Assembly: GCF_023229105.1 (NCBI RefSeq)
Contig: NZ_JALNZY010000001.1
Span: forward strand, 1,938-65,937
Reading direction: 5' to 3'
Length of the DNA: 64,000 nt
From: Sulfurimonas sp.
GTDB taxonomy: Bacteria; Campylobacterota; Campylobacteria; Campylobacterales; Sulfurimonadaceae
How positions within the stretch are numbered: position 1 is the stretch's first letter; each line of letters starts with the position of its first letter. A program made the translations under genes and the position numbers. Positions 26,724-49,043 of this stretch are shown piece by piece. The notes under the pieces are model-generated. The model had not been told where the DNA came from. It was given only the letters and a program-made list of their open reading frames with translations, and made no database searches.

Positions 26724-27074
26724 ATGAAAAAAACAATAGTAGGCTTATCGATTTCAACACTTTTTTTGTGTAATATTTGGGCTCAAGATATAAGTGCCCA
26801 AAGAGGTCAAGTGATATTTGAAACAAAAGGGTGTGTGACATGTCATAAAGATGATATAGATACAATCGGGCCATCATTGTCTACAATTGCCAGAGAGTAT
26901 CTAGGAAAAGAGAGAGAACTTCTCTCTTATCTTAGAGGACAGGCACCGGCTATTATTGATCCTGCGCGTGCACCGGTTATGGATCCGCAACTTGTAAAAA
27001 TCAGGTCGCTTTTTGATCCGGATATGCAAGCGCTTACAATGTACATCATTTCTGCAAACGACAGACCGTTTTAA
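26724..27074 (+). CDS. monoheme class I cytochrome c (c551/c552-like)
   Basis: Signal peptide, CVTCH, IGPSL, distal Met (PVMDPQ). Confidence 0.88.
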   Translation: MKKTIVGLSISTLFLCNIWAQDISAQRGQVIFETKGCVTCHKDDIDTIGPSLSTIAREYLGKERELLSYLRGQAPAIIDPARAPVMDPQLVKIRSLFDPDMQALTMYIISANDRPF

Positions 27075-27102
27075 TAAATAGTGAGGAAAGAGAAAAATAA
27101 AT

Positions 27103-28287
27103 ATGAAATATAGCTGGTTTTTTATATTAAAGATAGTAGTTGTCATGCTATCTGTTAGTGTCTTCGCACAAGGAGCTGTTTTAACAGATGCTGAGAAGTT
27201 TTACGGCACAGAACTCAAAGCATCAAAAAAAGTTCAGCACCCTCCTTTTGAGTGGGGTGACTGTACTGTTTGTCATACGGACGCAAAGGGGGAAGGAGCT
27301 CTTATTATGGATCCTCCTGAGTTATGTGCTATGTGTCATGAAGCAAAAGACACCAAAGCATTTATTCATGGTCCGGTAGCAGCAGGTGCATGTACAGCTT
27401 GCCATAATCCACATGAATCAGATAATGCAAAATTATTAACAGCATCTAGTATAAATGAGCTTTGTGTTTCATGTCATCAAGCTAAAGATGAGTTTATGCG
27501 CAATACCGCAAATATCCACTCGCCAGTAAAAGATCAGTGTATTAATTGCCATGACCCCCATACCGAGGATCATCAGTATCAATTAAAAGCCGATGGTAAA
27601 AAAGATCTCTGTGTTATGTGCCATGTCGATAAAGAAGTTTGGACAAGCACGGTAACAGATAAGCACGGCGCACTTGATAGACCTAGAAAGTGTTTAGAGT
27701 GTCATGATGCGCATGGCTCAGAGGTGCCGATGAATTTGATTAAAAATACTTCAAAAGAGCTCTGTTTGTCATGTCACAGCGAATCATTAACAAGAGATGA
27801 AGACGGTAGTAAGATTCTAAATATAGGAAAACATCTTGAAAATAATCCTGACTGGCATGGTCCTATTCTCTGGGGAGATTGTGCAGCATGTCACAATCCG
27901 CATGGTTCAAATAACTTAAGAATGTTGAACAAGCCGTTCCCTAGAACTTTCTATGATAAGTTTGAAGAGGATAACTATATCTGTTTTCAGTGCCATGAAA
28001 AAGAGAAGATTATGGATGCCAATACAACAACAGCGACAAATTTTAGAAACGGCTCAAACAATATGCACTTTGTACATGTAAACAAAGAAAAAGGTCGCTC
28101 TTGCCGAGCTTGTCATGATTTCCATGGTACAAAAGAGTATCCGCACCACTTAAGAGCAAAGACGAAGTTTGGTAAGATAAACTTCCCTATTCGTTTCATT
28201 GAAACGGAAAACGGCGGTTCATGTGCACCTGCCTGCCACGCTCGCCGTCACTATGACAGAGCAACGCCAAAAGTTAACCTTAAATAA
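27103..28287 (+). CDS. periplasmic dodecaheme cytochrome c (paired-CXXCH type; 11 CXXCH + CX3CH)
   Basis: Signal peptide; repeating H-x-P...CXXCH-xPH...L-CXXCH units; terminal CAPACH. Confidence 0.92.
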   Translation: MKYSWFFILKIVVVMLSVSVFAQGAVLTDAEKFYGTELKASKKVQHPPFEWGDCTVCHTDAKGEGALIMDPPELCAMCHEAKDTKAFIHGPVAAGACTACHNPHESDNAKLLTASSINELCVSCHQAKDEFMRNTANIHSPVKDQCINCHDPHTEDHQYQLKADGKKDLCVMCHVDKEVWTSTVTDKHGALDRPRKCLECHDAHGSEVPMNLIKNTSKELCLSCHSESLTRDEDGSKILNIGKHLENNPDWHGPILWGDCAACHNPHGSNNLRMLNKPFPRTFYDKFEEDNYICFQCHEKEKIMDANTTTATNFRNGSNNMHFVHVNKEKGRSCRACHDFHGTKEYPHHLRAKTKFGKINFPIRFIETENGGSCAPACHARRHYDRATPKVNLK

Positions 28288-28288
28288 A

Positions 28289-29314
28289 ATGAGTTTTAAA
28301 TTTATATACTTATTTCTCTTGTTATTTACCACAATAAGTGGTAATGCGCAAGAGATATCTTCCTTAATACTTCAGCCTCAAGATAAAACACGTTATATTG
28401 GAGAGAGCAGCACTTTTGTAATAAATGCTACGCTTAAAGAGGCAGACTATATAGTTATAGAGCAAAGTGATATAACTACGACATTAGAAATAAAACCGCA
28501 AAAAGATACATACTGTAAAACAATTAACCTCAATCCGGGAGAAAACACTGTTTTTGTTACTCTTTACAAGGATGCAAAACCTATAGGTAAAAGTAGTAGA
28601 GTGCTCTATTTTCTTTCAGAACTTTTTGAGGGAGTTGATGAATATGAGCTTGATGAGTACAAGATAAGATTTTTTCATCAGGATGCCAAAGAGAAGAAGT
28701 GTGCCTCATGTCACAATATGACATCAAATATTCCAACGAATAATGAAGCTCTTGAAGATGTGACAAAAACCACATGTTATGAGTGTCACAACAGCATGAT
28801 AAGTACAAAAAACACACATGCTCCAGCTGCCAACTGGCTTTGCATCAATTGCCATAATGGAAAATTTGGCGAGTATAATATGCAAGATAAAGGCGCTTCA
28901 AAATACTTAGTAGCAGATCCAGTGGCAAAAACTTGTGCAGAGTGTCACGAGGATGTTAAAGAGTGGGAAGAGAGTAAATTTGGACATGGTCCTGTGAATG
29001 ATGGAAGATGTGAGAGGTGTCATAACCCACACGGCTCAGACAACGAGTTTTTTCTAAGAAAATCAATCTGGGAGTTGTGCACTACATGTCATGCTGAAAA
29101 ATCAAATGGACAACATGTTACATCAGCTATAGGTTTTGGTGCACCGAATAAAAGTGGAGGACATCCAACAAGAGATAGAGAAGACCCTGCACGTCCCGGA
29201 AGAGAACTTACTTGTAGCGGATGCCATAACCCGCACGGTTCCGGCGGAATATCTCTGTTAAGAATGAAGGGAACTATGCCTTATGGCGTATGTCAAAGAT
29301 GCCACAAGAAGTAA
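28289..29314 (+). CDS. octaheme cytochrome c with N-terminal non-heme beta-sandwich-like domain
   Basis: Start moved to MSFKFIY at 28289; signal peptide; ~130-aa heme-free region, then 8 CXXCH. Confidence 0.9.
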   Translation: MSFKFIYLFLLLFTTISGNAQEISSLILQPQDKTRYIGESSTFVINATLKEADYIVIEQSDITTTLEIKPQKDTYCKTINLNPGENTVFVTLYKDAKPIGKSSRVLYFLSELFEGVDEYELDEYKIRFFHQDAKEKKCASCHNMTSNIPTNNEALEDVTKTTCYECHNSMISTKNTHAPAANWLCINCHNGKFGEYNMQDKGASKYLVADPVAKTCAECHEDVKEWEESKFGHGPVNDGRCERCHNPHGSDNEFFLRKSIWELCTTCHAEKSNGQHVTSAIGFGAPNKSGGHPTRDREDPARPGRELTCSGCHNPHGSGGISLLRMKGTMPYGVCQRCHKK

Positions 29315-29330
29315 ACAAACAGTTATTCTT

Positions 29331-29347: not shown

Positions 29348-29386
29348 ATATTACAATTTATCTATATTTTTGTTACAAAAAGTGAC

Positions 29387-29505: not shown

Positions 29506-30249
29506 ATGATTAGTAATAAAATCAAAGTTATTCTGTTTGCATCAATGTTAGGTGCCTCGTCTGTATTTGCTGGTCCGATTAGTGGTAGTCCGCATGACTT
29601 GTCCGCTCTTGCTGGATTAGATAGTTCAACTGCTGACAATGGGGAGATATGTGTATATTGTCATACGCCTCACGCGGCAAACTCCGCTTTTACAGGTGCG
29701 CCTTTGTGGAACAAGGCTACTCCAGCGGGAACATTTGATATGTATGGTGCAACAATAGCAGGAACAAATACAGAGGCAGCTCCGGCGAGTCCGTCTTTAG
29801 CATGCCTTAGCTGTCATGATGGTGTTAGTGCGATAGACTCTATTGTAAATGCACCCGGTTCTGGTATGAAATCAGTAACTGGATCTAAAGACATAGTAAC
29901 TGGTCTTGCGACTCAGTATGGCGGGAACATAGGTGGTCCGCTAAATGCTACGACTACGGGTAACCCTGATTTGACAAACGATCATCCTGTATCGATTATA
30001 TATACAGAGGGTAAAGCTGGACTTAGAGCGACTACTGTAAATCTTGCAACACTAGGTGATAATATTGCTTGGTTGGGTGCTACAACTATTGGAGATTTGC
30101 TTCGCGGGCCTACAAATGATCAAGTAGAGTGCGGTAGTTGTCATGATCCACATAACGGTGGAAATGATCAAGCAACAGCTACTGAAGTTAACTTCCTTCG
30201 CCATACAAATAAAAACAGCTACCTTTGTCTAGGTTGCCACAATAAATAA
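29506..30249 (+). CDS. secreted tetraheme cytochrome c, OmcE-like (candidate nanowire subunit)
   Basis: Sec signal (SVFA/G); PHDLS, EICVYCHTPH, PLWN, CLSCHDG, DLTNDHPV, VECGSCHDPH, FLR, LCLGCH. This order matches my recollection of Geobacter OmcE. Confidence 0.8.
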   Translation: MISNKIKVILFASMLGASSVFAGPISGSPHDLSALAGLDSSTADNGEICVYCHTPHAANSAFTGAPLWNKATPAGTFDMYGATIAGTNTEAAPASPSLACLSCHDGVSAIDSIVNAPGSGMKSVTGSKDIVTGLATQYGGNIGGPLNATTTGNPDLTNDHPVSIIYTEGKAGLRATTVNLATLGDNIAWLGATTIGDLLRGPTNDQVECGSCHDPHNGGNDQATATEVNFLRHTNKNSYLCLGCHNK

Positions 30250-30253
30250 TATT

Positions 30254-30347: not shown

Positions 30348-31451
30348 ATGAAAATCATCTTTCTTTCAATTCAAGTTATTATAATGTTCTTTTTTCAGGC
30401 TTGTGCTACCAAAGAGGTTGAAGTAGAAAAAATTATAACATTTCCTCAATATCCACAAACACCAAAAATACTGTATCTAACCACATACAGAGGTGGTGCA
30501 AAAGAGGATAAGTCAAGTGCATTAGATGTTTTTTTGGGTGAAAAAAAGAGTGAAAAAAAGGTTTCAAACATCATCAAGCCATATGGTGTTGGACTTCAAG
30601 ATGGCAAAGTGTATGTTGCGGATACAGGTTCGGATGCAGTATTTGTAATAGATGAGAATAGCAGAGAGCTTAAGTTTATAGGCAACGGTATAGTAGGCAG
30701 ACTTGCTGCACCTGTTGGAATTGCATTTGATAGAGATAAAAATTTATATGTAAGTGATTCGCGTGAGAGAAAAATAAACGGCTATAACTTAAACGGAGAG
30801 CTAAATTTTGTTCTTGGGGATAGAATGGAGTTTGCAAGCCCTACGGGAATTGCAGTAGATAAAAAACAGCACAGACTTTATGTTGTAGATACAAAAGCGC
30901 ATCAGTTTAAAGCTTACGATATTGCTACAAAAGAGCTTCTGTATAGCGTAGGTCAAAGAGGCACAAATGATGCAGAGTTTAACTTTCCTACAAACATTGC
31001 AGTAGATCAAAGAAATGGAAATATAGTAGTTGTAGATACACAAAACTTTCGAGTACAAATATTTGATAAAGATGGAAAATTTATAAGCAAGTTTGGAAAT
31101 ATCGGCAATAAGCCGGGAACATTTGCAAGACCAAAAGGTGTCGGTATTGACAGTGAGGGTAACATTTATATAGCTGATAGCGCGTTTAACAATATTCAGA
31201 TATTTGATGAGAAGGGAAGCGCACTGCTTATGTTTTTTGGCGGTGGGGGTTATGGTCCAACTCAGTTTCGTCTAGTTACTGGAGTATATATAGATGAGAA
31301 TGACAAGATAATAGTTGCTGATGGTTTTAGCGGAAGAGTACAGACATTTCAGTATATTAGTGAGAAATGGAAAGAGAACAATCCTCAGAAATATAGTGAA
31401 ATTACTGCTCCTCCAAATCTAGAATCGGATAATAAAACAGAAAAAAAGTAG
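30348..31451 (+). CDS. NHL-repeat (6-bladed beta-propeller) lipoprotein
   Basis: Lipobox FQAC; repeats PYGVG/PVGIA/PTGIA/PTNIA/PKGVG...YVADT, FNFP, NFRVQIFD. Confidence 0.92.
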   Translation: MKIIFLSIQVIIMFFFQACATKEVEVEKIITFPQYPQTPKILYLTTYRGGAKEDKSSALDVFLGEKKSEKKVSNIIKPYGVGLQDGKVYVADTGSDAVFVIDENSRELKFIGNGIVGRLAAPVGIAFDRDKNLYVSDSRERKINGYNLNGELNFVLGDRMEFASPTGIAVDKKQHRLYVVDTKAHQFKAYDIATKELLYSVGQRGTNDAEFNFPTNIAVDQRNGNIVVVDTQNFRVQIFDKDGKFISKFGNIGNKPGTFARPKGVGIDSEGNIYIADSAFNNIQIFDEKGSALLMFFGGGGYGPTQFRLVTGVYIDENDKIIVADGFSGRVQTFQYISEKWKENNPQKYSEITAPPNLESDNKTEKK

Positions 31452-31460: not shown

Positions 31461-32396
31461 TTGAATAAAGTATTTTTAATAGCCGTTTTAGGCACATTTT
31501 TATACGCAGGTAAGATACTGTTACCGGAATCTACGGTTGCAGTTGTCAATGGTACTGCTATTTCAGTAGATGAGAGAGACAAAGAGGTTGGAAAACTGCT
31601 TCCAAAAGCATATTTTCACTCAAGCGTAAATGCTGAAAAGCTAAAAGATTTACAAGAAAAAGCACTGGAAACATTGATTGAAAAAACACTGCTTTATACT
31701 TATGCTGTTTCAAAAAATATAAAAACAAGTGAGAGTGAAGTAGATGAAGTTATGACAAATCTCGCTGCAACTTACGGCTCTAAAGAAAAGCTAGAAGAAG
31801 CAGTGAAGCAGCTTGGATTTACAAAAGAGACTTTTAGAGAAGTTGTTAAAAAAGATGAAACACTAAAAAAACTTTATAAAAAAGAGATAAAGAGTGATAT
31901 TAGCGATAGAGCGCTAAGAGACTATTATGAAAAAAATAGCTACAAATTTAAAGAACCTGAAAAGATAAGAGTTAGACTGATACATATAAGAAACAACCCT
32001 GAAGATCCAGAAGGCAAAAGCAAAGCAAAAAAGAGAGTTGATGATGCAATGGCAGAGATAAAAAAGGGGACTCCTTTTGCAGATGTAGCGGCAAAATACT
32101 CTACTGCTATGAGCCGCATTAAAGGCGGAGATATGGGATTCCTTCATAGAGGAAGACTGGAAGTAGCGGTTGAAGATGCTGCTTTTTCTATGGAAATTGG
32201 GCAAACAAGTGAGATTATAGAACAAGATATCGGTTTTTTTATAGTAAAAGTGGAAGATAAAGCCCTATCAAATCAGCTCTCTTTTGAAGAAGTCAAAGAT
32301 GGACTTAAGAAGGATTTAAAAACCAAAGAAGAAGATGAAAAAAAAGCAAAACTACTTGAGAGGCTAATGCTAAATTCGGTGATTGTGAAACAATAG
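31461..32396 (+). CDS. periplasmic parvulin-type peptidyl-prolyl isomerase / SurA-PrsA-like chaperone
   Basis: VAVVNGTAIS SurA-N pattern; VRLIHI, FADVAAKYS, KGGDMGF rotamase motifs. Confidence 0.9.
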   Translation: MNKVFLIAVLGTFLYAGKILLPESTVAVVNGTAISVDERDKEVGKLLPKAYFHSSVNAEKLKDLQEKALETLIEKTLLYTYAVSKNIKTSESEVDEVMTNLAATYGSKEKLEEAVKQLGFTKETFREVVKKDETLKKLYKKEIKSDISDRALRDYYEKNSYKFKEPEKIRVRLIHIRNNPEDPEGKSKAKKRVDDAMAEIKKGTPFADVAAKYSTAMSRIKGGDMGFLHRGRLEVAVEDAAFSMEIGQTSEIIEQDIGFFIVKVEDKALSNQLSFEEVKDGLKKDLKTKEEDEKKAKLLERLMLNSVIVKQ

Positions 32397-32397: not shown

Positions 32398-34179
32398 GTG
32401 TTACAAAAAAAAACCCTATGTTGCCTCTGTCTAACCCTTGCATTAGTCTCAAGGCTTGCGGCAAATGATTATCCCGATGGTGGACTTTATGGAAGCCTAA
32501 ATTATCTATATATTCAAGATGATTATACCAATAGCGGAAGAGAGAACTCAAAAGAGAACTTTTTACAAGAGTATAAAATGGGGTACAAAGGCAATATCTA
32601 TAGTCCACGTCTGCTTGACTACTCACTTGAAGGTCTTATTAGATTTGATACAGAAAAACTTCAAAGAGACAAAGAGACATCAAAGCGTAAAACTTACGGG
32701 GAAGATTATAAAGCATATCTTGATTTTATCAAAGACACAAAAGTTCCTTTTACTATTTATGCGAATAAAACACAAAGACCGGTAAATACGGTTTATAGCG
32801 CTTACTCAACAAATTATCAGTATGAGACAAGCGGCGAGGGAGTAACCGGTTCTTTAAAATTTGAACCGTATATGGTTACATATGGGGCTACTACAATAAA
32901 AACAGTGGCAGAGTTCAGCGACAGACTGCAAGATTCTCGAACTACAACTTACAGTAGTTCATTTCGTTATAACAAAGAAAAGCATAACGTACAAGCAAAC
33001 TATTCACACTCCATATTGGAAAATGAACAAAACTATATTAACGATGAAATTACGAGCATTAATCAAGTCAAAGATATATTTGCAATATCTCATAACTGGA
33101 AAGCTTCTGATGCTTTTAATATAGATTCTACTGCATCATATGAAAATGATGAATATTATGCAAGAGAGACTATGGATGCAGGCGTGAATCTAAACTATAG
33201 ACCAAAAAATGCCGACTATGACACTTACTTATCGTTTCTTGGAACGACAATGGAGTATGGAGATTTAACAGGGGGTGAAAAATATATTTTTGACTCGTTA
33301 AACATTAATCAAGGAGTTAACTACAGGGTAACTCCGAGTATTACTTTATCAGAGTCTGCCATGGCATATTTATATGATAGCACGACCTCAAGTGGCAGCA
33401 ATTCGTATGTTAATTTAGATGCTACTCACAACTATGCAACTACTATATTTTCAGATGTTTCTTTTACTCTTGTAAGCAGGGTGGGTGTGCAAAAAAATGA
33501 TTCTATAGTAAAAACCATCTTAGATGCAAACTCAACCACTACAAAAACAAGTACAGAGAGATATAACATTCAGCTCACCGCTAGAGGGAGAAAAAATTTC
33601 CCTTCTATCAATTCAAATTTAAATATAGACAGTGGCTACTATCACTCTTTGTACTCTACAAAAAGAGAAGAGCAGAGATATAACTTTGGGCTCTATTTTT
33701 TGTCAAAAATTTTTAGTATCGTAAATAATAATATTACTGCCAGATACAGTCATACAAATACTATCCCTGCGCCTTCTTTAATTACGCCAGAAGGAAGAAG
33801 CAGCTATTCAACGACAAATATAATGGAGTCTTTAGATTTTCATTTTAGACTTGGCGCAAGAGGACGAATCAGATTTAGAGTTGGAGCAGAATATGTAAAC
33901 ACAAAAACTGATAATGAAACCAACAGCCGTGTTGACCCAAGAGCAGAGATGAATATGAACTATAGGTTTTTCAATAACTGGATGTTTGATGCTTCCGCAA
34001 GGATAAACGAAGCATACAATACTCTTGAGCATTCAGGAAATGCAAATTTGACATTCAAAGCAGGAAAAACTAGTTTTTTAATGGGATATCAGTATAATAA
34101 GAGTGAGATAGAGAGTGTTTTAAACACAATACAAAATGAGCGTTCAACTTTTAGAGTACAGTTGACGCGGACATTTTAA
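32398..34179 (+). CDS. large outer-membrane beta-barrel protein (porin-cytochrome conduit or secretion pore candidate)
   Basis: GTG start, signal peptide, Tyr/Asn/Ser-rich alternating strands throughout, C-terminal FRVQLTRTF beta-signal, no CXXCH. Confidence 0.8.
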   Translation: MLQKKTLCCLCLTLALVSRLAANDYPDGGLYGSLNYLYIQDDYTNSGRENSKENFLQEYKMGYKGNIYSPRLLDYSLEGLIRFDTEKLQRDKETSKRKTYGEDYKAYLDFIKDTKVPFTIYANKTQRPVNTVYSAYSTNYQYETSGEGVTGSLKFEPYMVTYGATTIKTVAEFSDRLQDSRTTTYSSSFRYNKEKHNVQANYSHSILENEQNYINDEITSINQVKDIFAISHNWKASDAFNIDSTASYENDEYYARETMDAGVNLNYRPKNADYDTYLSFLGTTMEYGDLTGGEKYIFDSLNINQGVNYRVTPSITLSESAMAYLYDSTTSSGSNSYVNLDATHNYATTIFSDVSFTLVSRVGVQKNDSIVKTILDANSTTTKTSTERYNIQLTARGRKNFPSINSNLNIDSGYYHSLYSTKREEQRYNFGLYFLSKIFSIVNNNITARYSHTNTIPAPSLITPEGRSSYSTTNIMESLDFHFRLGARGRIRFRVGAEYVNTKTDNETNSRVDPRAEMNMNYRFFNNWMFDASARINEAYNTLEHSGNANLTFKAGKTSFLMGYQYNKSEIESVLNTIQNERSTFRVQLTRTF

Positions 34180-34192: not shown

Positions 34193-35203
34193 ATGAAAAT
34201 TTTTTTATATATGCTGGTTTTTATAGGGGGCTTCAATACTTTTTATGCTCAAGAGAGAGTAAAATTGGTATGGCCACCGCCGCCGGATGAGGCCAAAATA
34301 GAGTTTGTCTCTTCTATCCATAATTCTGATGATTTAGGGATAAAAAAAGGTTTTTTTTCAAAGGCTTTTGATTTTTTATTCGGTAAAGAGGAGAGAAGCC
34401 TCCGAGCTCCGTTTGGTGTTCACGCTCATGAAGAGAGAGTTTATACGACCGATATAGCTACAAAATCACTCTATATATTTGATAAAAAAAAGAATAATAT
34501 GATTACGATTAGCGGTTCTAAAAAGGAGCAGTTTTTATATCCTATAGATATTACGACTGATGAGAGTGGAAATATTTATGTCTCAGACTCCGTAAGAGCT
34601 AAAATATATGTCTTTGAAAAAGATGGAGATTACAAATACTCTATAGAGCCAAAAATGCTGCAAAGACCGGTTGGAATTGCTATAAGCCCAGATAAAAAAC
34701 TCTATATCGTAGATGCGCTCTCAAGCCAGATACACGTAACTTCTCTAAAAGGGGACTACTTAGGATCTATCGGCAAAAACGGCACAGGCGATGGAGAGTT
34801 TAACAGACCTACCTTTATGGATATCGGTCATGATGGAAAGCTTTATGTGTCTGACTCTATGAATCATCGTGTGCAGATACTCGGTAGTGATGGAGGGTTT
34901 ATAGATAAATTTGGTAAGTTAGGGCAAGAGATAGGGAACTTTGGTAGTCCTAGGGGTATCTCGATAGATAGTGATGAGAATATTTATGTATGTGATACGA
35001 TGTTTAACAATATACAGATTTTTAATCAAAAAAAAGAGCTATTAATGGTGCTTGGTCGTTATGGAGATAAAAGAGGCGAATTTGCCCTAGCAGAAGATAT
35101 TTCAATAACAAAAGATAATATAATATATGTAACAGATACCAATAATAACCGCATTCAACTCTTTAAGCTTATTAACTCAGCACAGATAAGGAGTTTAAAA
35201 TGA
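34193..35203 (+). CDS. second NHL-repeat beta-propeller protein
   Basis: Signal peptide; PFGV/PIDI/PVGI/RPT/PRGI repeats, GEFNRP, NHRVQI, NNRIQLF. Confidence 0.92.
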   Translation: MKIFLYMLVFIGGFNTFYAQERVKLVWPPPPDEAKIEFVSSIHNSDDLGIKKGFFSKAFDFLFGKEERSLRAPFGVHAHEERVYTTDIATKSLYIFDKKKNNMITISGSKKEQFLYPIDITTDESGNIYVSDSVRAKIYVFEKDGDYKYSIEPKMLQRPVGIAISPDKKLYIVDALSSQIHVTSLKGDYLGSIGKNGTGDGEFNRPTFMDIGHDGKLYVSDSMNHRVQILGSDGGFIDKFGKLGQEIGNFGSPRGISIDSDENIYVCDTMFNNIQIFNQKKELLMVLGRYGDKRGEFALAEDISITKDNIIYVTDTNNNRIQLFKLINSAQIRSLK

Positions 35204-41094: not shown

Positions 41095-41691
41095 ATGAAA
41101 AAATGGTTTATGGCAGTTGCGATTGCTATTTTGACAGCGGGGTGTTCGACGCTTGAGGTACAGGTTGATTATGATCCGGAGTATAAATTCTCAAGCCTCT
41201 CTACGTTTAGCGTGGTCTATACAAACAGAAATGATGCGAGAGATTTTGACAGAGATCGCATCAGCAGACTGCTAGATGCGTATATGCAAGAGAAGGGGTA
41301 TATAAAGTCTCCTAAGAACAAAGCTGAGTTTTATATTACAATGCATCTTGATGTGCAAAAAAAGAGTCAGATGGAGACTAATTATGAGACTATCGGAATC
41401 AGACCTATACCGTATGTATATTATGGAGCAATGGGTCCCGCAGCTATTTATCCAAGAGGCTATCCTTCAGGAATGGTTACAGCAGAGCCTGATGTTAGGG
41501 TAACTACAAGAACTAACGAGTATGAAGAGGGCAAACTTATTCTAGAAGTTTTTGATGTCAAGGAAAACAGGGTTGTTTGGCAGGGTATAGCAATAGATGA
41601 GCTCTCAAAAGGTCATACGCAAGAAGAGAAAAACAACTATTTAAAAAAAGTTATTTCCGAGCTTTTTAAAGATTTTCCTGCAAAGAAGTAG
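41095..41691 (+). CDS. DUF4136 family lipoprotein
   Basis: Lipobox LTAGC; VDYDP...F, EYEEGKLILEVFD...VVWQG. Confidence 0.8.
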   Translation: MKKWFMAVAIAILTAGCSTLEVQVDYDPEYKFSSLSTFSVVYTNRNDARDFDRDRISRLLDAYMQEKGYIKSPKNKAEFYITMHLDVQKKSQMETNYETIGIRPIPYVYYGAMGPAAIYPRGYPSGMVTAEPDVRVTTRTNEYEEGKLILEVFDVKENRVVWQGIAIDELSKGHTQEEKNNYLKKVISELFKDFPAKK

Positions 41692-41737: not shown

Positions 41738-42595
41738 TTATAAAGAGGTAAATTTAGCTTCTTCTATAAGTACAGAGAAGTTGTACCCGTAACCGAGGTC
41801 GATGTCTGTTTTGACTATTCCGTTTGCAGTAACTGTGTCTCCTACTTGTACGGTTGAGTTTACCGCCGTTGCGATTATATCGTTTGTGCCTGCACTACCA
41901 GAGCCATCTTGAAGATGAATCCAATCCTTACCCATAATATTTTTAGAAATTTTGACTATCTTAGCATTTATTTTTACGCTTTTGTCTTTAAGGGCAGCTT
42001 TTTTTGTATATAGCTCTTCTATAGTGTATCCGCCTTTGTTTTTTGCTACAGAGATGGCAGCTGAATCAGGCTGCGTTACCGTTGCTGTTGTTGCAGGCTC
42101 TTTTGAGTGGTCGCAATTTGCATGAGCATCCTCTAGGGTCAATGTTTTAGCAGATGCATCTGTAGCACTTCCATCTGCGGGTACAATAGCACTTACAAAA
42201 ACTAACTGGTCAAAATGTTTATTTAACGACTTACTTGTAAAATCATTCATAACCATCTGCTCCAAGAACGAGATAGAGCTTCCAACAACAACATTTGTCT
42301 GTGGACCTGCTATCCAGTATATGTTTCCGCCTTCATCAACTTTAGCATAAGTGTAACCGCCGCCATTTATAGTCTCTAGTGCCTTTGCTATATGAGGCGT
42401 GTTTAACTGTACATTACCCTTAGCAGGTGCGTTTGCTTGTGCTTGCTCTGTGGCAGGCACGCCATACATACTTTTAGGAATACTCTCCTCGACACTTTTG
42501 CTTATTTGGGTTGAACTCTCTTGTTCTTTAGGCTTATCGCTACAGCCGTACATTAAAAGTGCGGCAACACTAATTGCTATTGATATTTTGTTCAT
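41738..42595 (-). CDS. NrfJ-like lipoprotein with C-terminal OB-fold-like domain
   Basis: Lipobox MYGC; ALETINGGGYTYAKV...YWIAGP (NrfJ-like); C-terminal VKINAKIVK...MGKDWIHLQDGSG...DLGYGY. Confidence 0.6.
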   Translation of the reverse strand: MNKISIAISVAALLMYGCSDKPKEQESSTQISKSVEESIPKSMYGVPATEQAQANAPAKGNVQLNTPHIAKALETINGGGYTYAKVDEGGNIYWIAGPQTNVVVGSSISFLEQMVMNDFTSKSLNKHFDQLVFVSAIVPADGSATDASAKTLTLEDAHANCDHSKEPATTATVTQPDSAAISVAKNKGGYTIEELYTKKAALKDKSVKINAKIVKISKNIMGKDWIHLQDGSGSAGTNDIIATAVNSTVQVGDTVTANGIVKTDIDLGYGYNFSVLIEEAKFTSL

Positions 42596-43343
42596 TTTGT
42601 TCCTTTAAAATTTTTTTATGTTCTTCATATCTTTTTTTTGCTGCTTCAAAAGTTTCGTTGGGGTTTTTACTTGCTTTGAAGTATTCTTCCATAAAGTTGT
42701 TGTAGTCAATCTCTTCTTGAGTTATTTTTTTGGCTTTTTTCTGGGCATCTTTTTGTTCTTGAGTTAGAACTAGAGGTAGAGCTTCTATAAGAATAGCTAC
42801 GGCATTCATCTGCTTCTCAGAGAGTTTTGAAGCCTGCCCATTCATCATGACTCCTTGACCGTAAGTATTTCTTGTACCTGCTTTATATTCCTTTAAATCT
42901 TTTACAACTTCTGTTGCACTCATTCCAGCAATCAGTTTGCTTACGCCAAGCGATTTTTTTTGACCCTTGTCGCCATGGCATACCGCGCATTTTTGAAAAA
43001 TCTCTTCAGCAGTCATATCTTTTGTCCGTTTAGGCTCTGTAGCTATTTTGACTATCGGAGCAAGAGATGCTATATAGCCAGAGAGTTCTTTTATATCTGC
43101 ATCAGAGAGTCGTTTTGCCTGTCCTTGCATCATGCTTCCGAGTCCGTATGTGTTCCTAGTGCCTGCTCTGTACTCTTGAAGTATAGCGGTAACCTCTTTT
43201 TGGTCCATGCCAGCAATGCTTTTTGTTAGATTTTGAGAGTGTTTTTCACCATTTTTTCCATGACAAGTCGCACATCTATCAAAGAGTTGTGTTGCGGAAG
43301 CTACAGTGGCGATTGAGATTAGAATAAGTAAAGCTTTTTTCAT
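42570..43343 (-). CDS. diheme cytochrome c (tandem c553-like domains)
   Basis: Signal peptide; CATCHG and CAVCHG, each followed by YKAGTR.....MM.GQA..LS. Confidence 0.9.
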   Translation of the reverse strand: MKKALLILISIATVASATQLFDRCATCHGKNGEKHSQNLTKSIAGMDQKEVTAILQEYRAGTRNTYGLGSMMQGQAKRLSDADIKELSGYIASLAPIVKIATEPKRTKDMTAEEIFQKCAVCHGDKGQKKSLGVSKLIAGMSATEVVKDLKEYKAGTRNTYGQGVMMNGQASKLSEKQMNAVAILIEALPLVLTQEQKDAQKKAKKITQEEIDYNNFMEEYFKASKNPNETFEAAKKRYEEHKKILKEQNEQNINSN

Positions 43344-43346
43344 CTT

Positions 43347-44090
43347 CTACTCCTCTGGAAGAACCGACTCTTGAATTTCAACTTGCCACTGCTCTTGATC
43401 TAAAATCAGTTTTGCTTCCGAGTTTCCGTTTAGGTAAGCCTCTTTTAAGAGATCCTCTGCCTCTTTTTTATCTTTGGCAACACCGTCGCCTTCAAGATAC
43501 ATTCTGCCAAGCGTATATTGAGCCTCTCCGCAGCTTTGCATTGCGGACTTGCTTAGATACTCTTTTGCTTTTTCTATATCCTTTTTAACTCCTTGCCCAC
43601 TTTTATACATATAGCCCACTTTGTTTTGTGCCAGTGGATAACCTGCATCGGCAACCTGCTTATATAGAGGAAAGGCTTTTGCATAATCCTGCTCTGCACC
43701 GTCACCTTTATAATATAAGTCCGCTAAATGAAGCGCCGATTTTTGATCACCTTTTTTAGCTGCTTTGGAAAACAGAGCGATAGCCTCTTTGTCATTTTGT
43801 TTTACGCCATCACCCTTGTGGTACATAACCGCGAGGTTATAAATAGCTTTTGCATGACCTTGATCTGCTGCTTTTTGGTACAACTTAGCGGCCATGGCAT
43901 GGTCTTTATCGGTAACAATTCCTTGATAATACATACCACCCAATGCAAACTGGCTATTTGCTTCCCCTTTTTCGGCTTTTATTTTTACGGACATAAAAGC
44001 TTTTTTATTCATATCAATCTTCTCTGCAGCAACGGCTGAGTTTAAAATCAGCAAAGAGTGCAGAAGAAGTATAAGCACTGTTTTTTTCAT
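43347..44090 (-). CDS. Sel1-like (SLR/TPR) repeat periplasmic protein
   Basis: Signal peptide; repeated A.QG.A.AQ..LG.MY..G.GV..D units; TGATATAAT promoter on the minus strand at 44128-44136. Confidence 0.92.
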   Translation of the reverse strand: MKKTVLILLLHSLLILNSAVAAEKIDMNKKAFMSVKIKAEKGEANSQFALGGMYYQGIVTDKDHAMAAKLYQKAADQGHAKAIYNLAVMYHKGDGVKQNDKEAIALFSKAAKKGDQKSALHLADLYYKGDGAEQDYAKAFPLYKQVADAGYPLAQNKVGYMYKSGQGVKKDIEKAKEYLSKSAMQSCGEAQYTLGRMYLEGDGVAKDKKEAEDLLKEAYLNGNSEAKLILDQEQWQVEIQESVLPEE

Positions 44091-44378: not shown

Positions 44379-45008
44379 GTGCAAAAAGATGATATGAGAA
44401 TAGAAAGAAAGAGAAAATACTCTTTTGGAATAAGGGTTATAATTGCTCTTATAGTAGGTGGAGTAGTTGTAGGGATGGGAACATCTTTTGTTACGGTCAT
44501 TGCAGTAAAGCATACGTCAGACGTAAACTTTTGTGGTTCTTGCCACTCTATGAAGCCTATGGCTGATGCTTATAGAAATAGTGTTCATGGTGGGTACGGT
44601 GATAGCGGTATTATGGCTACTTGTGCGGATTGTCACTTGCCACATGAATCTACTCTTGGTTATATGGTACAGAAGGTTAAGACCGGTATGTGGGATGTGT
44701 GGGTTGAGACTACGCACGATACTTCAAAAATTGATTGGCATGAGCGTCGCAGAGAGCGTCGTAACTGGGTTTATGATAGTGGATGTCTGCATTGTCATGA
44801 AAACTTATTACGCGGTACCCGACCAAATAAAAAGGCATTTACTGCTCATAAAGCCTATTTCTCTGAAAAACTTTTAGTTGAAGGTGAAGATGGGAAAGAG
44901 CGTGCAAAGTGTGTTGATTGTCACAGAAATGTAGGTCACTATCAACTAGAAAAACATCTTCCGCCACCGCCAGTGGAAGTATATAATGAAAATAATAAAA
45001 AGCATTAA
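44379..45008 (+). CDS. NapC/NirT family membrane-bound tetraheme quinol dehydrogenase (CymA/NrfH-like)
   Basis: GTG start; N-terminal TM helix; TSDVNFCGSCHSM, CADCHLPH, CLHCH, CVDCH..VGH. Confidence 0.93.
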   Translation: MQKDDMRIERKRKYSFGIRVIIALIVGGVVVGMGTSFVTVIAVKHTSDVNFCGSCHSMKPMADAYRNSVHGGYGDSGIMATCADCHLPHESTLGYMVQKVKTGMWDVWVETTHDTSKIDWHERRRERRNWVYDSGCLHCHENLLRGTRPNKKAFTAHKAYFSEKLLVEGEDGKERAKCVDCHRNVGHYQLEKHLPPPPVEVYNENNKKH

Positions 45009-45014
45009 GGAGAT

Positions 45015-45539
45015 ATGATGGAACAAAAATATATTAAACCAACTATTATTGTGGGTGTGCTTGTTATCATTATCATTCTGCTTGCTATGTCAAATGCTGG
45101 TGAAAAGTTTGTGCGTTTAGGAAAAATTGGGGAGCAGATTGCAACCAATCTTGCTAATGCAAGTCATGGAGATCCTCGTTCTCTTAAAGAGATGGACAAA
45201 GAACGAATAAAAGCTACTACGGGTAGCTCTCATACCGTAGATGTCAGTGAGTTGCCAAAGGCATTTCTCCCACTCAAAGAGCATGGGCATCCACCTTTTA
45301 CCCTGGGTGCGTGTAACGTATGTCATGCTTCAAGAACAGATAAGCCCGCTGCAATTACGACTCGTACGGTAGCTGAGCTTTGTTACACATGTCATTATCC
45401 AAAAGAGGAAATTGATAAGCGTATGGCTGCACTAGATTGTAATAAGTGTCACAGCCCTCATCACGCAGATAGGGAAAAACTTGTGCGAAATAAAGTTATT
45501 GAAAAAGAGTGTCCAGTAGGTGAATTTCAATCAAACTAA
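45015..45539 (+). CDS. membrane-anchored triheme cytochrome c
   Basis: N-terminal hydrophobic helix; CNVCH, CYTCH, CNKCH; HPPF.LGAC motif shared with the dodecahemes. Confidence 0.85.
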   Translation: MMEQKYIKPTIIVGVLVIIIILLAMSNAGEKFVRLGKIGEQIATNLANASHGDPRSLKEMDKERIKATTGSSHTVDVSELPKAFLPLKEHGHPPFTLGACNVCHASRTDKPAAITTRTVAELCYTCHYPKEEIDKRMAALDCNKCHSPHHADREKLVRNKVIEKECPVGEFQSN

Positions 45540-45583
45540 TAGTTTGATTGAAATTTGGTAGTTAAAAAACACGAGGTATAGTA

Positions 45584-47104
45584 ATGAAACAAAATATGAC
45601 AAAAATAATAATAACAGTGTTGGTATTAGCACTGAGTGTATTCTTATTTCAGTCATATGGTGTTGCTGATAAGCTGAGTCGCTTTGTTACTATAATGGGT
45701 AATATAACAAATAGTCTTAAAAATGCCAAACATGCCTATGAAGAGGTTAATTTTACTATAAGCGATGATGAATTAAAAGATGTCAATATCACTAAACTTG
45801 CCCAAGAGTTTAAAAGTTCTATTGATAAGAAAAAAGAGGCTCTTGTTCTTGCTATAAAAGCACCGCCAGAGATTCAAGTTGATGAGATTAGAGAAGAAGA
45901 GATCCCAACACACACTAAAACACAAACAATAAAAGCAAAAATTGTTAAGATGGAAGATTTACCTGCAAAATTCAAACCGCTTAAGCAGTATCTTCATGAA
46001 CCATTTAAGATGGGAGCATGCCAAATCTGCCATACATCAAAGAATAATAAACCCGGAGAGCTGGTTAAGAAAAATATTTCTGAGATATGTTATGAATGTC
46101 ACAAGACTCGCTACACAAAAAAGTTTGATCATAAACCTGCAAAAGATGGACGATGCATGGACTGTCATGATCCGCATCAGTCAAATACAAAAAAGTTACT
46201 AAAGGCTGAGTCTGTAAATACCCTATGTCTGAAGTGCCATGACCGCAAAAGCACATTCAGTGCAAAAGCAGAAAAGCTGTTTGTCAACATGGACTTGGCG
46301 GTTAAGCATAAGCCTATTGTAGAAAAGAGTTGTTTAGAGTGTCACGATGCACATACGGCAGATCACAAATCACTCCTTTCTCTTGATGCAAAGATGGATT
46401 TATGTTTGGATTGCCATGATACAATTAAAGAAAAAATAACTCATGCAAAGTTTAAACATGGTGGTGTAAATACAAGTGAGAAGCGCTGTTTAGAGTGTCA
46501 TGATCCGCATGCTACAAAACATGTTAAACTGCTTAAAAAAGACCCGGTTGCTACATGTTTAAAGTGCCATGACAAAGAAGTAAAGTCTGATGAAGACGGC
46601 GGAATGCTTATGAATATGAAAAAGCATCTAGACGAAAATCCAAATTGGCACAAACCAATAAAAGATGTTAAAAAAGAGGGAGGATGTTCAGCTTGTCACG
46701 ATCCACACGGTTCAGATAACTTTAGCATTCTAAGAAAATCTTTTACGCAAAACTTTTATGCTGATTTGGCAAATAAAGAGTTTTTTTGTTTTAAGTGTCA
46801 CACAGAGAAAAAAATTACAAAACAGTTTATCACTACTTCACAGGAGCACAATATTACTGCGTTTAGAGACGGCGAGGTAAATCTGCACTACCTACATGTA
46901 AACGATAGAAAAGGGCGTGCATGTAGAGCTTGTCATGATGAACATGCTTCTAAATACAAGCATCTTATAAGGGACTATACCGATTTTAACGGTATAAAAT
47001 TTCCGCTTAGGTTTAAAGAGAGTGCTGAGGGTGGTTCTTGTGCTCCTGCTTGTCATAAAGAGTTTGCTTATGACCGTGTTAATCCAAAAGGGATAGGAAA
47101 GTGA
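45584..47104 (+). CDS. membrane-anchored dodecaheme cytochrome c (11 CXXCH + CX3CH), paralog of 27103-28287
   Basis: N-terminal TM helix and ~110-aa heme-free stalk, then paired-CXXCH units ending GGSCAPACH. Confidence 0.92.
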   Translation: MKQNMTKIIITVLVLALSVFLFQSYGVADKLSRFVTIMGNITNSLKNAKHAYEEVNFTISDDELKDVNITKLAQEFKSSIDKKKEALVLAIKAPPEIQVDEIREEEIPTHTKTQTIKAKIVKMEDLPAKFKPLKQYLHEPFKMGACQICHTSKNNKPGELVKKNISEICYECHKTRYTKKFDHKPAKDGRCMDCHDPHQSNTKKLLKAESVNTLCLKCHDRKSTFSAKAEKLFVNMDLAVKHKPIVEKSCLECHDAHTADHKSLLSLDAKMDLCLDCHDTIKEKITHAKFKHGGVNTSEKRCLECHDPHATKHVKLLKKDPVATCLKCHDKEVKSDEDGGMLMNMKKHLDENPNWHKPIKDVKKEGGCSACHDPHGSDNFSILRKSFTQNFYADLANKEFFCFKCHTEKKITKQFITTSQEHNITAFRDGEVNLHYLHVNDRKGRACRACHDEHASKYKHLIRDYTDFNGIKFPLRFKESAEGGSCAPACHKEFAYDRVNPKGIGK

Positions 47105-48036
47105 TATCTGCTTATGATTTTGCAAAAGCTTTTATAGCGTTGGCTATATTTTTCACAGGCGCTTTTGCAGAAGATGGGTTTATGCAGGTACTCACTCCAA
47201 AACAGAACCATCTTCAAACTGAGTTGACGCTAAATGTTGTTTTAGAGATAGACAAAAAAAGAGTAGATATCATTAAAATAATGACTCCCTTAGAGGAGAT
47301 AGAGATAGATATGAAAAGCCAAAAAAATACAGAGTGCAAAAACATTCAGCTGAGACTCGGTGAAAACAGAGTTGATATTAGAGCCTATAAAGAGAATGTT
47401 TTAGTAGCTCAAGAGAATAGAGATGTTTATGTCTCATCAGAGCTTTATCATCAGTTTAGGTATCCGCCACAAGAGTATAGCCATACTTATTTTCACAATA
47501 AAGATAATGAGAAACTTTGTGCAAAATGTCACGACATGAGTGTGAATGAAGTAAGTGGTGTGGCATTTGAGGATATTACAAAATCAAACTGTTATGGATG
47601 TCACAAGAGTATAAACAAAGAGAAGTATGCTCATGCCCCTTCGGCAAACTGGCTATGTACTAGCTGTCATATACAGAGCAAAAAAGGTGTCTCCAAATAT
47701 CTCACAAAAGAGCCTATTAATGCTTCATGTTTTGAGTGTCACGAGGAGAACAAAGAGTTATGGGGTAATGCAAAATATCGCCATGAACCATTGGATTCAG
47801 GACACTGCGAGAAGTGTCATAATCCTCACTCCGGTCCCTACATCATGTTTATACGCAAAGATGTAAACCTGATATGTCTGGGATGCCATAAAGATAAGCA
47901 TATAAAAGCGCAGCAGAGCAAAAATTCTGCATGTAGTGGTACTAGCGAGGGGGGCTTATGTATAGAGTGCCATACGCCGCATGCGTCAAATCAGCCGTTT
48001 TTTCTAAAAAAGAGATTTGAGAGAGTTGTAAAATGA
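47101..48036 (+). CDS. heptaheme cytochrome c with N-terminal beta-sandwich-like domain
   Basis: GTG start, signal peptide, 7 CXXCH; paralog of 28289 and 48033. Confidence 0.88.
   Translation: MISAYDFAKAFIALAIFFTGAFAEDGFMQVLTPKQNHLQTELTLNVVLEIDKKRVDIIKIMTPLEEIEIDMKSQKNTECKNIQLRLGENRVDIRAYKENVLVAQENRDVYVSSELYHQFRYPPQEYSHTYFHNKDNEKLCAKCHDMSVNEVSGVAFEDITKSNCYGCHKSINKEKYAHAPSANWLCTSCHIQSKKGVSKYLTKEPINASCFECHEENKELWGNAKYRHEPLDSGHCEKCHNPHSGPYIMFIRKDVNLICLGCHKDKHIKAQQSKNSACSGTSEGGLCIECHTPHASNQPFFLKKRFERVVK
47530..47625 (+). repeat. 96-bp direct repeat, copy 1
   Basis: 94/96 identical to 48465-48560. Confidence 0.9.
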
Positions 48037-49043
48037 GAAGGTATATCTGCATAAAATATATACTCTCTTTACTGTTCTGCTCTTTCTTGCTTTTTGCGCA
48101 GGATGAAACAGGATTCAGATTGCTTAATCCGCAAATCTCTAGTATAAATGAAGAGAGGATTGCTTCATTTGTGATTGAGGCTGATAGCCAAAAAATAGAT
48201 TTTATTTCAATAACGACAGATGCAAACAAGACGTTTAGCATTGAGGTTAATGAGGAGCGCTCACACTACTGTAAAAGTATAAATCTTCATATTGGGCTAA
48301 ACAGTATAAAAGTGGCAGGCTACAAAAATGCTTTAGTTATAAAAGAGCAGAGCAGAGAGCTCTTTTTTGTATCAAAAGTTGACAAAGATTTTAGATACCC
48401 GCCAGAGGGGTATAGCAAAAAACATTTTCATAACCAAGAGAATGAGAAGCTATGTATAAAATGCCACGACATGAGTGTGAATGAAGTAAGTGGCGTGGCA
48501 TTTGAAGATATTACAAAATCAAACTGTTATGGATGTCACAAGAGTATAAACAAAGAGAAGCACTCACATGCACCATCGGTAAATTGGCTCTGCACATCTT
48601 GTCATAACGGTGAGGTAGGAGTGTTTAATAAGGCAGATAAAGATAGGACAAAATATAGTGTTCCAGATCCGATAGAGGGAGTTTGCTTCTCCTGCCATAA
48701 AAAATATAAAGAGGAGTGGAGCAAAAAAAGGTTCCATCATGAGCCTGCGGAGTCCGGACGCTGCAATAGGTGTCATAATGCACACTCATCGCTTAGCGAG
48801 TTTTACCTAAAAAAGCCTTCTTGGGAGCTCTGTACAGATTGTCATAAAGATAAAATTGAGGGGATGCATATTGTTAAAACATTTGGGAGAAAAGCGCATC
48901 CGACCCATAATGTAAAAGATCCCTCCAGAGAAGGCAAGGATTTAAGCTGTACAAGTTGTCATAACCCGCATGCCTCAAACGCGCCATCTCTTCTACAGAG
49001 TGAAACCAGCATGGGGCTCTGCTCCCGTTGCCATAAAAAATAA
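48033..49043 (+). CDS. octaheme cytochrome c with N-terminal beta-sandwich-like domain
   Basis: Signal peptide, 8 CXXCH; same layout as 28289-29314 (HAP..NWLC, GHP/AHPT...DP.R.G..L.C). Confidence 0.9.
   Translation: MRRYICIKYILSLLFCSFLLFAQDETGFRLLNPQISSINEERIASFVIEADSQKIDFISITTDANKTFSIEVNEERSHYCKSINLHIGLNSIKVAGYKNALVIKEQSRELFFVSKVDKDFRYPPEGYSKKHFHNQENEKLCIKCHDMSVNEVSGVAFEDITKSNCYGCHKSINKEKHSHAPSVNWLCTSCHNGEVGVFNKADKDRTKYSVPDPIEGVCFSCHKKYKEEWSKKRFHHEPAESGRCNRCHNAHSSLSEFYLKKPSWELCTDCHKDKIEGMHIVKTFGRKAHPTHNVKDPSREGKDLSCTSCHNPHASNAPSLLQSETSMGLCSRCHKK
48465..48560 (+). repeat. 96-bp direct repeat, copy 2
   Basis: 94/96 identical to 47530-47625; both differences are synonymous. Confidence 0.9.

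Follow-up and report, generated by a model that had tools for sequence, protein, structure and literature searches.

We analyzed a stretch of 64,000 nt from a Sulfurimonas sp. contig (NZ_JALNZY010000001.1), which we call the window, and in particular a cytochrome-rich region of 22.3 kb at positions 26724-49043. The region holds 20 closely packed genes, 17 on the plus strand and 3 on the minus strand, and 11 of them encode c-type cytochromes. Together these carry 69 CXXCH motifs, two CX3CH motifs and one CX12CH motif, for a total of 72. A count of CXXCH in all six reading frames found 70 within these 22.3 kb, against 7 in the window's remaining 41.7 kb. The genes listed first encode what looks like an outer-membrane and surface complex, together with the enzyme that attaches haem. 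PPIase stands for peptidyl-prolyl cis-trans isomerase.

29506-30249, plus strand: OmcE-like tetrahaem cytochrome, 247 aa, four CXXCH; equivalent of UetA and candidate extracellular filament subunit (matches to 7TFS and 9YUQ)
30348-31451, plus strand: NHL six-bladed beta-propeller lipoprotein, lipobox FFQAC (PF01436, E=1.7e-30)
31461-32396, plus strand: SurA-like N-terminal domain and parvulin PPIase, equivalent of UetB (PF13616, E=3e-21; PF13624)
32398-34179, plus strand: outer-membrane beta-barrel, 593 aa, 28 strands (AlphaFold2), terminal Phe; positional equivalent of UetC
34193-35203, plus strand: second NHL propeller, with a signal peptide and without a lipobox (PF01436, E=5e-28); 4-nt overlap with the next gene
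35200-37260, plus strand: undecahaem cytochrome of the UetJ/OccP family, 686 aa, ten CXXCH and one CX12CH; OmcE module at residues 1-245, then seven more haem sites
37903-41061, plus strand: fused CcsBA (ResB+CcsA), System II cytochrome c synthase, 1052 aa (PF05140 and PF01578; TIGR03144, E=2e-46)

A sequence-only reading of this DNA had already counted 11 cytochromes and 72 haem motifs, and we found every gene in its place and the same total. The barrel, the two NHL propellers, the parvulin and the CcsBA that it named were likewise confirmed, the last as a fusion of ResB and CcsA. It had called the host Sulfurimonas-like, and this is supported since the nearest named proteins come from Sulfurimonas sp. 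(70-82% identity).

The OmcE-like subunit and its surface complex

The 247-aa tetrahaem protein matches G. sulfurreducens OmcE (PDB 7TFS) over its full length, with an E-value of 1.6e-22 in phmmer (query residues 5-247, chain residues 6-232). It also matches 9YUQ over its full length (E=2.7e-18), which we infer to be the OmcE filament subunit of D. soudanensis. The N-terminus has a signal peptide and a conserved donor-type His. In an alignment of 29 homologues, including those of Candidatus (Ca.) Sulfurimonas marisnigri and Ca. S. baltica, eight haem-ligand His residues are invariant (His30, 53, 56, 104, 160, 213, 216 and 245). The ligands beyond the His of the four CXXCH motifs are His30, which lies in an N-terminal PHD/KHDLS-type motif, His56, His160 and His216. 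The chain ends directly after the fourth haem motif, the same as in OmcE. With the full-length match to 7TFS and all eight ligands conserved, the earlier description of this protein as OmcE-like holds.

OmcE filaments have been shown in two Desulfuromonadia, where the omcE cluster always comes with a barrel and propellers, and Campylobacterota were named among the phyla that have OmcE homologues with a porin and a propeller close by (bioRxiv 10.1101/2025.10.22.684050). For Petersen et al., candidate nanowire-forming OmcE homologues are those with four CXXCH motifs, four further ligand His, and a barrel and a propeller lipoprotein nearby (bioRxiv 10.1101/2025.10.22.684050). At the window, the neighbors are the barrel (32398-34179), the NHL lipoprotein (30348-31451) and the other NHL protein (34193-35203). 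We regard the 247-aa protein as a candidate filament subunit.

The 593-aa protein had no Pfam match and no sequence match in the PDB. AlphaFold2, run on a 26-sequence alignment, modeled it as a 28-strand barrel with a mean predicted local distance difference test (pLDDT) score of 87. Foldseek against the PDB gave MtrB (6r2q_B) as the best match to this model (E=2.5e-10, with a template modeling (TM) score of 0.35). The barrel family is small and fast-evolving, with 105 representatives among 1.8 billion proteins. The two NHL propellers that flank the PPIase and barrel genes share 32% identity.

The undecahaem protein begins with a second OmcE module. Residues 7-223 match 7TFS with E=5e-22, and 9YUQ aligns through the fourth CXXCH. 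In the family alignment of 34 homologues, ten CXXCH motifs are invariant, and so is C304-X12-C317-H318. This last motif is haem site 6. It is CX12CH in Campylobacterota and Aquificota, while the aligned column is a plain CXXCH in Tenderia UetJ, in Dechloromonas and in one Desulfobacterota homologue, so that the CX12CH amounts to a 10-residue insertion between the two cysteines. The undecahaem is much better conserved than the tetrahaem or the barrel, at about 50% identity across Sulfurimonas, Nitrosophilus and Persephonella.

Where OmcE ends, the chain of the undecahaem runs on past the fourth motif, and about 10 residues further there is an invariant His252, which is kept in 6/6 aligned distant homologues. 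We infer that the undecahaem keeps the OmcE donor His, ligates its own fourth haem internally through His252 in place of an incoming His, and lengthens the haem chain by seven haems. Such a protein would have a place at one end only of an OmcE-type polymer, base or tip, and so it could cap one end. According to Petersen et al., OmcE operons contain no such end candidate (bioRxiv 10.1101/2025.10.22.684050).

It is also quite possible, although we lean against it, that there is no nanowire here and that the tetrahaem and the undecahaem sit on the barrel as a discrete, unpolymerised surface complex, an analogue of MtrC on MtrAB. Polymerisation has been shown for two Desulfuromonadia OmcE proteins only, the identity of the window protein to the solved OmcE is modest, and the full-length phmmer alignments have many gaps. 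Tetrahaem OmcE-like proteins are very widespread, and the OmcE authors filter them by gene context. Besides, the undecahaem alone would make a wire 11 haems long. What speaks for polymerisation is that the donor His of the KHDLS-type motif and all the other ligand His are invariant, that the barrel and the propeller lipoprotein are both present in the gene context, and that the tetrahaem ends right at its fourth haem motif in the fashion of OmcE.

One family of clusters in many phyla

To compare loci across phyla we used a scan with the undecahaem alignment, taking one genome per species, from which 80 of 328 confirmed loci were kept; the L-numbers below refer to these. S. marisnigri is not among the 80 though it has the gene, and therefore the scan is unfit for deciding presence or absence in cultured Sulfurimonas. 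In the listed loci, the core order of OmcE-like, PPIase, (barrel), NHL, undecahaem and CcsA-type genes recurs in many phyla. It is found in Campylobacterota, Aquificota (Persephonella), Nitrospirota, metagenome-assembled genomes (MAGs) of Chlorobiaceae and Bacteroidota, Desulfobacterota MAGs and Magnetococcales, as well as in Gammaproteobacteria (Ca. Tenderia, Ca. Thiodiazotropha, Sedimenticolaceae) and Rhodocyclaceae (Dechloromonas and unclassified MAGs). At the loci of Azoarcus and Aromatoleum, only the undecahaem gene was seen. A CcsBA gene, or CcsA and CcsB genes, adjoins the undecahaem gene in most of these phyla, Proteobacteria included, and the Uet authors remarked that System II is unusual in Proteobacteria (bioRxiv 10.1101/2022.05.06.490989).

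We also noted variation in these loci. Two OmcE-like paralogues are present in L008, L009, L010, L012 and L043 (other Campylobacterales, Persephonella and Nitrospirota), while the window has one. Some of the paralogues in these two-copy loci have five CXXCH motifs and resemble the 5-haem OmcE-like group of the 2025 preprint. The Persephonella MAG locus L010 has, at 9986-12868, an undecahaem open reading frame of 960 aa that ends in a class I monohaem domain like the one encoded at 26724-27074 in the window. This is either a true fusion or a frameshift in the MAG, and the other Persephonella homologues are about 690 aa long.

One described counterpart is the uet cluster of Ca. Tenderia electrophaga. 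It encodes the tetrahaem UetA, the PPIase UetB, the 28-strand barrel UetC, the NHL proteins UetH/I and the undecahaem UetJ, followed by ccsA, ccsB and a TPR (NrfG-like) protein (bioRxiv 10.1101/2022.05.06.490989). In a tblastn search the window undecahaem matched a Ca. Tenderia sp. locus with E=1e-51 and 32% identity, and all 11 haem sites align with those of Tenderia UetJ. From the same Ca. Tenderia sp. locus, UetA matches OmcE with E=3.8e-25 and the N-terminus of UetJ matches OmcE with E=1.8e-21. This connection between OmcE and Uet is not drawn in the OmcE bundle preprint or in those Uet and Occ papers that were readable to us.

In the Tenderia locus L070 the tetrahaem, PPIase and NHL genes have the same order as in the window, and System II ccs genes and a TPR protein follow downstream, as do CcsBA (37903-41061) and Sel1 (43347-44090) in the window. 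However, the window has MtrA-like 12- and 8-haem proteins instead of c7 cytochromes and a cupredoxin, and an extra propeller between the tetrahaem and PPIase genes. The undecahaem has 686 aa and a CX12CH at site 6, compared with about 905 aa in Tenderia. The window also has a second, paralogous cytochrome set (42-44% identity) led by a NapC/NirT protein and a trihaem, and the direction proposed for Tenderia is uptake.

The omcE cluster shares with the window the tetrahaem subunit, the large barrel, two propellers, further multihaem cytochromes and neighbors of resB/ccsB type. The window differs in belonging to Campylobacterota, in having a SurA-like PPIase and a NapC-headed module nearby, and in lacking the glycosylation genes that follow omcE. 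Filaments have been shown for the omcE cluster, while the window is known from its genes. The Desulfobacterota MAG locus L083 has a UetJ-like protein.

For occA-S of Ca. Dechloromonas occultata, the comparison was made with a Dechloromonas MAG and not with the Ca. D. occultata genome. The undecahaem is of the same family (the MAG homologue has 925 aa), NHL proteins are present, and there is a link to manganese. In a Mn(III)-reducing enrichment, several of the multihaem cytochromes with high expression come from occ, whose undecahaem is named OccP (bioRxiv 10.1101/695007). In contrast to the window, occ is betaproteobacterial, it is a larger cluster of 19 genes with 10 cytochromes, and the tests used soluble Mn(III) in place of solid MnO2.

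Two other systems share some features with the window. MtrCAB of Shewanella (6R2Q) has the same logic of a periplasmic multihaem in a large barrel with a surface cytochrome; MtrB is the best structural match of the window barrel, and chain A of the complex is the only PDB match of two window cytochromes, H12a and H8b. But the window barrel has 28 strands rather than 26, the TM score is 0.35, there is no surface decahaem of the MtrC/OmcA type, and the DmsE/MtrA model stays below its cutoff. In Desulfovibrio ferrophilus IS5, multihaems are encoded with NHL propellers, which were proposed to stabilise an outer-membrane cytochrome complex (PMC5815863). That system is centered on other large cytochromes (DFE_450 and DFE_464), and we liken it to the window by description only.

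Judged by its genes, then, the locus is a known cluster type (omcE, uet or occ) and not a new kind of system. The sequence-only reading had overstated its novelty, as the architecture is published as uet (bioRxiv 10.1101/2022.05.06.490989; PMC10734462), occ (bioRxiv 10.1101/695007) and omcE (bioRxiv 10.1101/2025.10.22.684050). What our comparisons add are the homology of Tenderia UetA to OmcE, the complete OmcE module with which the undecahaem begins, the CX12CH at site 6, and the synteny with MnO2-respiring species.

Periplasmic cytochromes, haem attachment and other genes

The remaining nine cytochromes are proposed to connect the inner-membrane and periplasmic electron pools with the surface complex.

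26724-27074, plus strand: class I monohaem cytochrome c whose gene opens the operon, signal peptide present; one CXXCH (PF00034, E=9e-8)
27103-28287, plus strand: periplasmic dodecahaem H12a, MtrA/DmsE-like; 11 CXXCH and a C-terminal CX3CH (CAPACH)
28253-29314, plus strand: octahaem H8a, with an N-terminal domain (about 130 aa) that is free of haem; eight CXXCH, 42% identical to H8b
42570-43343, minus strand: dihaem class I cytochrome c; two CXXCH (PF00034, E=4e-17, two stretches)
44379-45008, plus strand: tetrahaem quinol dehydrogenase of the NapC/NirT/NrfH family with an N-terminal membrane helix; four CXXCH (PF03264, E=5e-33)
45015-45539, plus strand: trihaem cytochrome with an N-terminal hydrophobic anchor; three CXXCH
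45584-47104, plus strand: second dodecahaem, H12b, a paralogue of H12a (42% identity) that is extended at the N-terminus by about 130 aa, a hydrophobic segment among them; 11 CXXCH and, near the C-terminus, CAPACH
47101-48036, plus strand: heptahaem, paralogue in the octahaem family, 44% identical to H8b; seven CXXCH
48033-49043, plus strand: octahaem paralogue H8b, 42% identical to H8a; eight CXXCH

H12a scores 120 bits against the NCBIfam model of DmsE-family decahaems (TIGR03508), for which the cutoff is 192, and has 12 haem sites where that family has 10. Its only PDB match is 6r2q_A (E=3.4e-15), which is also the only one for H8b (E=1.9e-13). This chain is labeled "Cystathionine beta-synthase" in the PDB sequence table under an entry titled "Structure of the Mtr complex", and its length of 333 aa, as we read it, fits MtrA. 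For H8a the start is ambiguous, as a TTG at 28199 would give 371 aa and an 89-nt overlap with the 12-haem gene, and an ATG at 28253 gives 353 aa. The ATG is more likely because it is the start called on metagenome contigs (353 aa).

The NapC/NirT protein, which the sequence-only reading had also recognized, covers positions 8-171 of the 174 in the profile, with four CXXCH motifs and a hydrophobic N-terminus. None of the specific NCBIfam models (NrfH, NapC, TorC) reached its cutoff. For the 7- and 8-haem proteins we rejected the idea of a catalytic octahaem reductase (Otr, ONR or HAO), as they showed no match to these families and no special motif. An MtrC-type surface cytochrome was also rejected. 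The matches to PF22113 were mostly under the gathering score, the few above it were short repeat-motif matches with no full-length MtrC/OmcA-type architecture, and TIGR03507 gave a trace only.

Two kinds of haem motif are atypical. The CX3CH motif, CAP[AM]CH, is kept in both 12-haem paralogues, in S. marisnigri, in S. baltica and in Persephonella. We regard the CX3CH and CX12CH motifs as real haem sites because they are conserved and because the CX12CH aligns with a plain CXXCH in homologues. It is plausible that the CcsBA is dedicated to maturing the cytochromes of the cluster that have them. A parallel case would be W. succinogenes, in which CcsA1 reportedly acts as a dedicated haem lyase for the CX15CH of MccA. 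Such a role is weakened by homologues with a plain CXXCH at site 6, which also keep adjacent ccs genes, and by the omcE cluster of Desulfuromonadia, which adjoins an apparently housekeeping resB/ccsB (bioRxiv 10.1101/2025.10.22.684050).

The other genes in the region and two upstream are as follows.

22150-24213, plus strand: molybdopterin oxidoreductase, 687 aa, with an N-terminal Fe4S4 domain (upstream flank)
24546-24935, minus strand: secreted thioredoxin-like protein (DsbH/Thioredoxin_7), upstream of the cluster with an aldehyde dehydrogenase gene between
37268-37807, plus strand: secreted protein of 179 aa, no known family, between the undecahaem gene and ccsBA
41095-41691, plus strand: DUF4136 lipoprotein (PF13590, E=5e-30), present in loci L005 and L006
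41738-42595, minus strand: lipoprotein of 285 aa, no known family, conserved in loci L005 and L006
43347-44090, minus strand: Sel1/TPR repeat protein (PF08238, E=2e-41)

The thioredoxin-like gene is also present in the S. marisnigri and S. baltica flanks, and its product could serve as the thiol reductase for apocytochromes on which a System II synthase depends. The molybdopterin oxidoreductase is kept in the same flank of all four Sulfurimonas genomes that we saw, and we found no link between it and the cluster. The 179-aa protein had no Pfam or NCBIfam match, but its place between the undecahaem gene and ccsBA is kept in Campylobacterota loci (154 aa in S. marisnigri). Whether the DUF4136 lipoprotein and the 285-aa lipoprotein are members of the system is uncertain. 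The minus-strand trio at 41738-44090 (lipoprotein, dihaem and Sel1) is kept with the cluster in two other Sulfurimonas/Helicobacteraceae loci, and Sel1 matches occur near the cluster in many listed loci.

We found identical loci on metagenome contigs of 88 kb and 346 kb. The DNA runs that matched the OmcE-like gene were groundwater and landfill metagenomes only, so the habitat of the organism is groundwater or landfill and not marine. We rejected a signal of horizontal transfer in the composition, since guanine-cytosine content is flat over the window. A scan for promoters and terminators showed no enrichment over shuffles, and the operon structure is therefore read from gene spacing alone.

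Direction of electron flow and the manganese lead

Ca. S. marisnigri and Ca. S. baltica link the oxidation of sulfide to the reduction of solid MnO2 at redoxclines in the Black Sea and in the Baltic, by an electron route that is unknown and that in S. marisnigri may differ from known ones (PMC6589767). The sequence-only reading had pointed to S. marisnigri and proposed a synteny check, and this turned out well. Ca. S. marisnigri SoZ1 and Ca. S. baltica GD2 both carry the cluster, collinear with that of the window and at the matching place in the chromosome, and their OmcE-like proteins are 52% and 53% identical to that of the window. Upstream, the shared order is molybdopterin oxidoreductase, UPF0102, thioredoxin-like gene and aldehyde dehydrogenase. 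Within the cluster it is monohaem c, 12-haem, 8-haem, OmcE-like, (one extra small gene), NHL, PPIase, barrel, NHL, undecahaem, small protein, ccsA and resB. A closed Sulfurimonas genome of 2.13 Mb has the same gene order, and the position of the monohaem gene is conserved in S. marisnigri, S. baltica and OW818672.

We think it probable that the locus is the Campylobacterota version of an OmcE/Uet/Occ outer-membrane multihaem machine with a paralogous, NapC-headed feeder, and that its most likely use in Sulfurimonas is outward, to solid Mn(IV) oxide. The steps that we propose are drawn from homology and gene order. Electrons would exit the menaquinol pool through the membrane-anchored NapC/NirT tetrahaem, or the cytochrome c pool by way of the class I mono- and dihaems; the monohaem at 26724-27074 possibly links to the bc1/Sox/cbb3 cytochrome c pool. 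From there they would pass along the MtrA-like periplasmic 12-, 8-, 7- and 3-haem proteins and cross the outer membrane via the 28-strand barrel, which the SurA-like parvulin and the two NHL propellers may assemble or brace. They would then reach the surface undecahaem, whose N-terminal OmcE module may dock on the tetrahaem OmcE-like subunit, possibly polymerised into a haem wire. The adjacent CcsBA would mature these haem-dense proteins, including the CX3CH and CX12CH sites. The chain could also run inward.

A complete conduit with every layer encoded, as the sequence-only reading had it, stands in part. The layers are there by homology (an inner-membrane NapC/NirT protein, MtrA-like multihaems, a barrel and predicted surface cytochromes), while completeness and the nanowire stay predictions.

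Several points weigh against our interpretation. The window barrel has the same position and the same predicted strand number (28) as Tenderia UetC, yet the profile comparison finds no homology: hhalign gave a probability of 0.6%, with no detectable sequence relation. With a Desulfobacterota barrel, only an N-terminal motif is shared (probability 92%). Between its barrel and NHL genes the window lacks the trihaem c7 proteins (UetD/E/G) and the cupredoxin (UetF). For the undecahaem, AlphaFold2 without haems and with a 34-sequence alignment reached a pLDDT of 41, and the shape and docking of the protein are read from the sequence alone. The CcsBA is either dedicated to the cluster or the housekeeping copy of the genome. 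S. marisnigri did not grow on Fe(III) oxides, unlike the users of OmcE (PMC6589767). We looked for expression, localisation and genetic data on Campylobacterota copies and found none, and no RNA runs contained the OmcE-like gene. In the openly readable literature we found no link between the cluster and the MnO2 phenotype, and their association is a lead and not a correlation.

Outward flow is favored by the NapC-type entry and by the phenotype of S. marisnigri and S. baltica, and inward flow by the Uet precedent and by class I cytochromes that could connect to oxidases. Such haem chains can run in either direction, and a paper on Gallionellaceae points to evidence for reversible flow through Mto/Mtr. 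If the same hardware ran in reverse, it would draw electrons from donors in solid form (FeS, pyrite, elemental sulfur, cathodes, cable bacteria or partner cells) and pass them through the cytochrome c pool to a cbb3 oxidase or Nap, as proposed for the Uet of Ca. Tenderia. The organism that served to define Uet is an autotroph that oxidises a cathode, and on biocathodes the expression of the uet genes differs with electrode potential (bioRxiv 10.1101/2022.05.06.490989). Gallionella and Leptothrix, which oxidise iron, have Uet too (PMC10734462, PMC13386937). The class I mono- and dihaems of the locus could reach oxidases while bypassing the quinone pool, Sulfurimonas genes for extracellular electron transfer were transcribed mostly at high abundance of cable bacteria (PMC11748539), and there are relatives in mineral-associated lithotrophs (Persephonella, Nitrosophilus and Hydrogenimonas). 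On the other side, a NapC/NirT quinol dehydrogenase leads the second module, which is the classical outward entry (CymA), though reversible. Among Sulfurimonas phenotypes, MnO2 reduction alone calls for exchange with a solid (PMC6589767), and the two species that show it have the cluster. We therefore consider uptake as the main use to be possible, but doubtful.

A further alternative concerns the two halves of the locus. The module at 44379-49043 (NapC and the 3-, 12-, 7- and 8-haem proteins) might be an independent periplasmic chain that lies here by chance or duplication. There is a minus-strand gene trio between it and the core, its cytochromes are paralogues of the core H12a and H8a at 42% identity, and the S. 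marisnigri and S. baltica contexts cover the cluster as far as ccsA/resB only. However, a NapC-type gene and an H12 paralogue adjoin the core in three further genomes (L005, L008 and Persephonella L010) in differing orientations, and a functional link is therefore favored over chance, without being proven. Gene neighborhood, conserved but rearranged elsewhere, is what supports the link, and we hold two unrelated halves to be unlikely.

The reduction of a soluble or chelated substrate at the surface or in the periplasm, such as ligand-bound Mn(III), has the precedent of occ in an enrichment that reduces soluble Mn(III)-pyrophosphate (bioRxiv 10.1101/695007), but it seems quite improbable for the window, where we saw neither a catalytic-type motif such as CXXCK nor an above-cutoff match to NrfA, Otr or HAO, where haems are packed as is typical of wires (about one per 25-35 residues), and where a 28-strand barrel, propellers and an OmcE-type subunit would be superfluous for a soluble periplasmic substrate.

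Outward transfer to Mn(IV) oxide is the use that we favor. A bolder proposal is that pelagic Sulfurimonas reduce Mn(IV) oxide with the OmcE/Uet/Occ machine, which would be their missing reductase and the first cytochrome nanowire system in Campylobacterota, with the undecahaem as an unrecognized terminal adaptor of OmcE-type filaments. We make it tentatively and think it less likely than not.

By sequence, omcE, uet and occ can be joined as one multi-phylum family, and therefore the data on the Geobacter filament, the Tenderia cathode and Mn(III) reduction in Dechloromonas can be read together. The undecahaem starts with an OmcE module, which hints at a way to anchor or cap such filaments, a question that the structural papers leave open. 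For S. marisnigri and S. baltica, the cluster is a concrete and genetically testable candidate for the electron route to MnO2, and the groundwater and landfill origin of the window means that such electron exchange may also matter for Sulfurimonas in aquifers.

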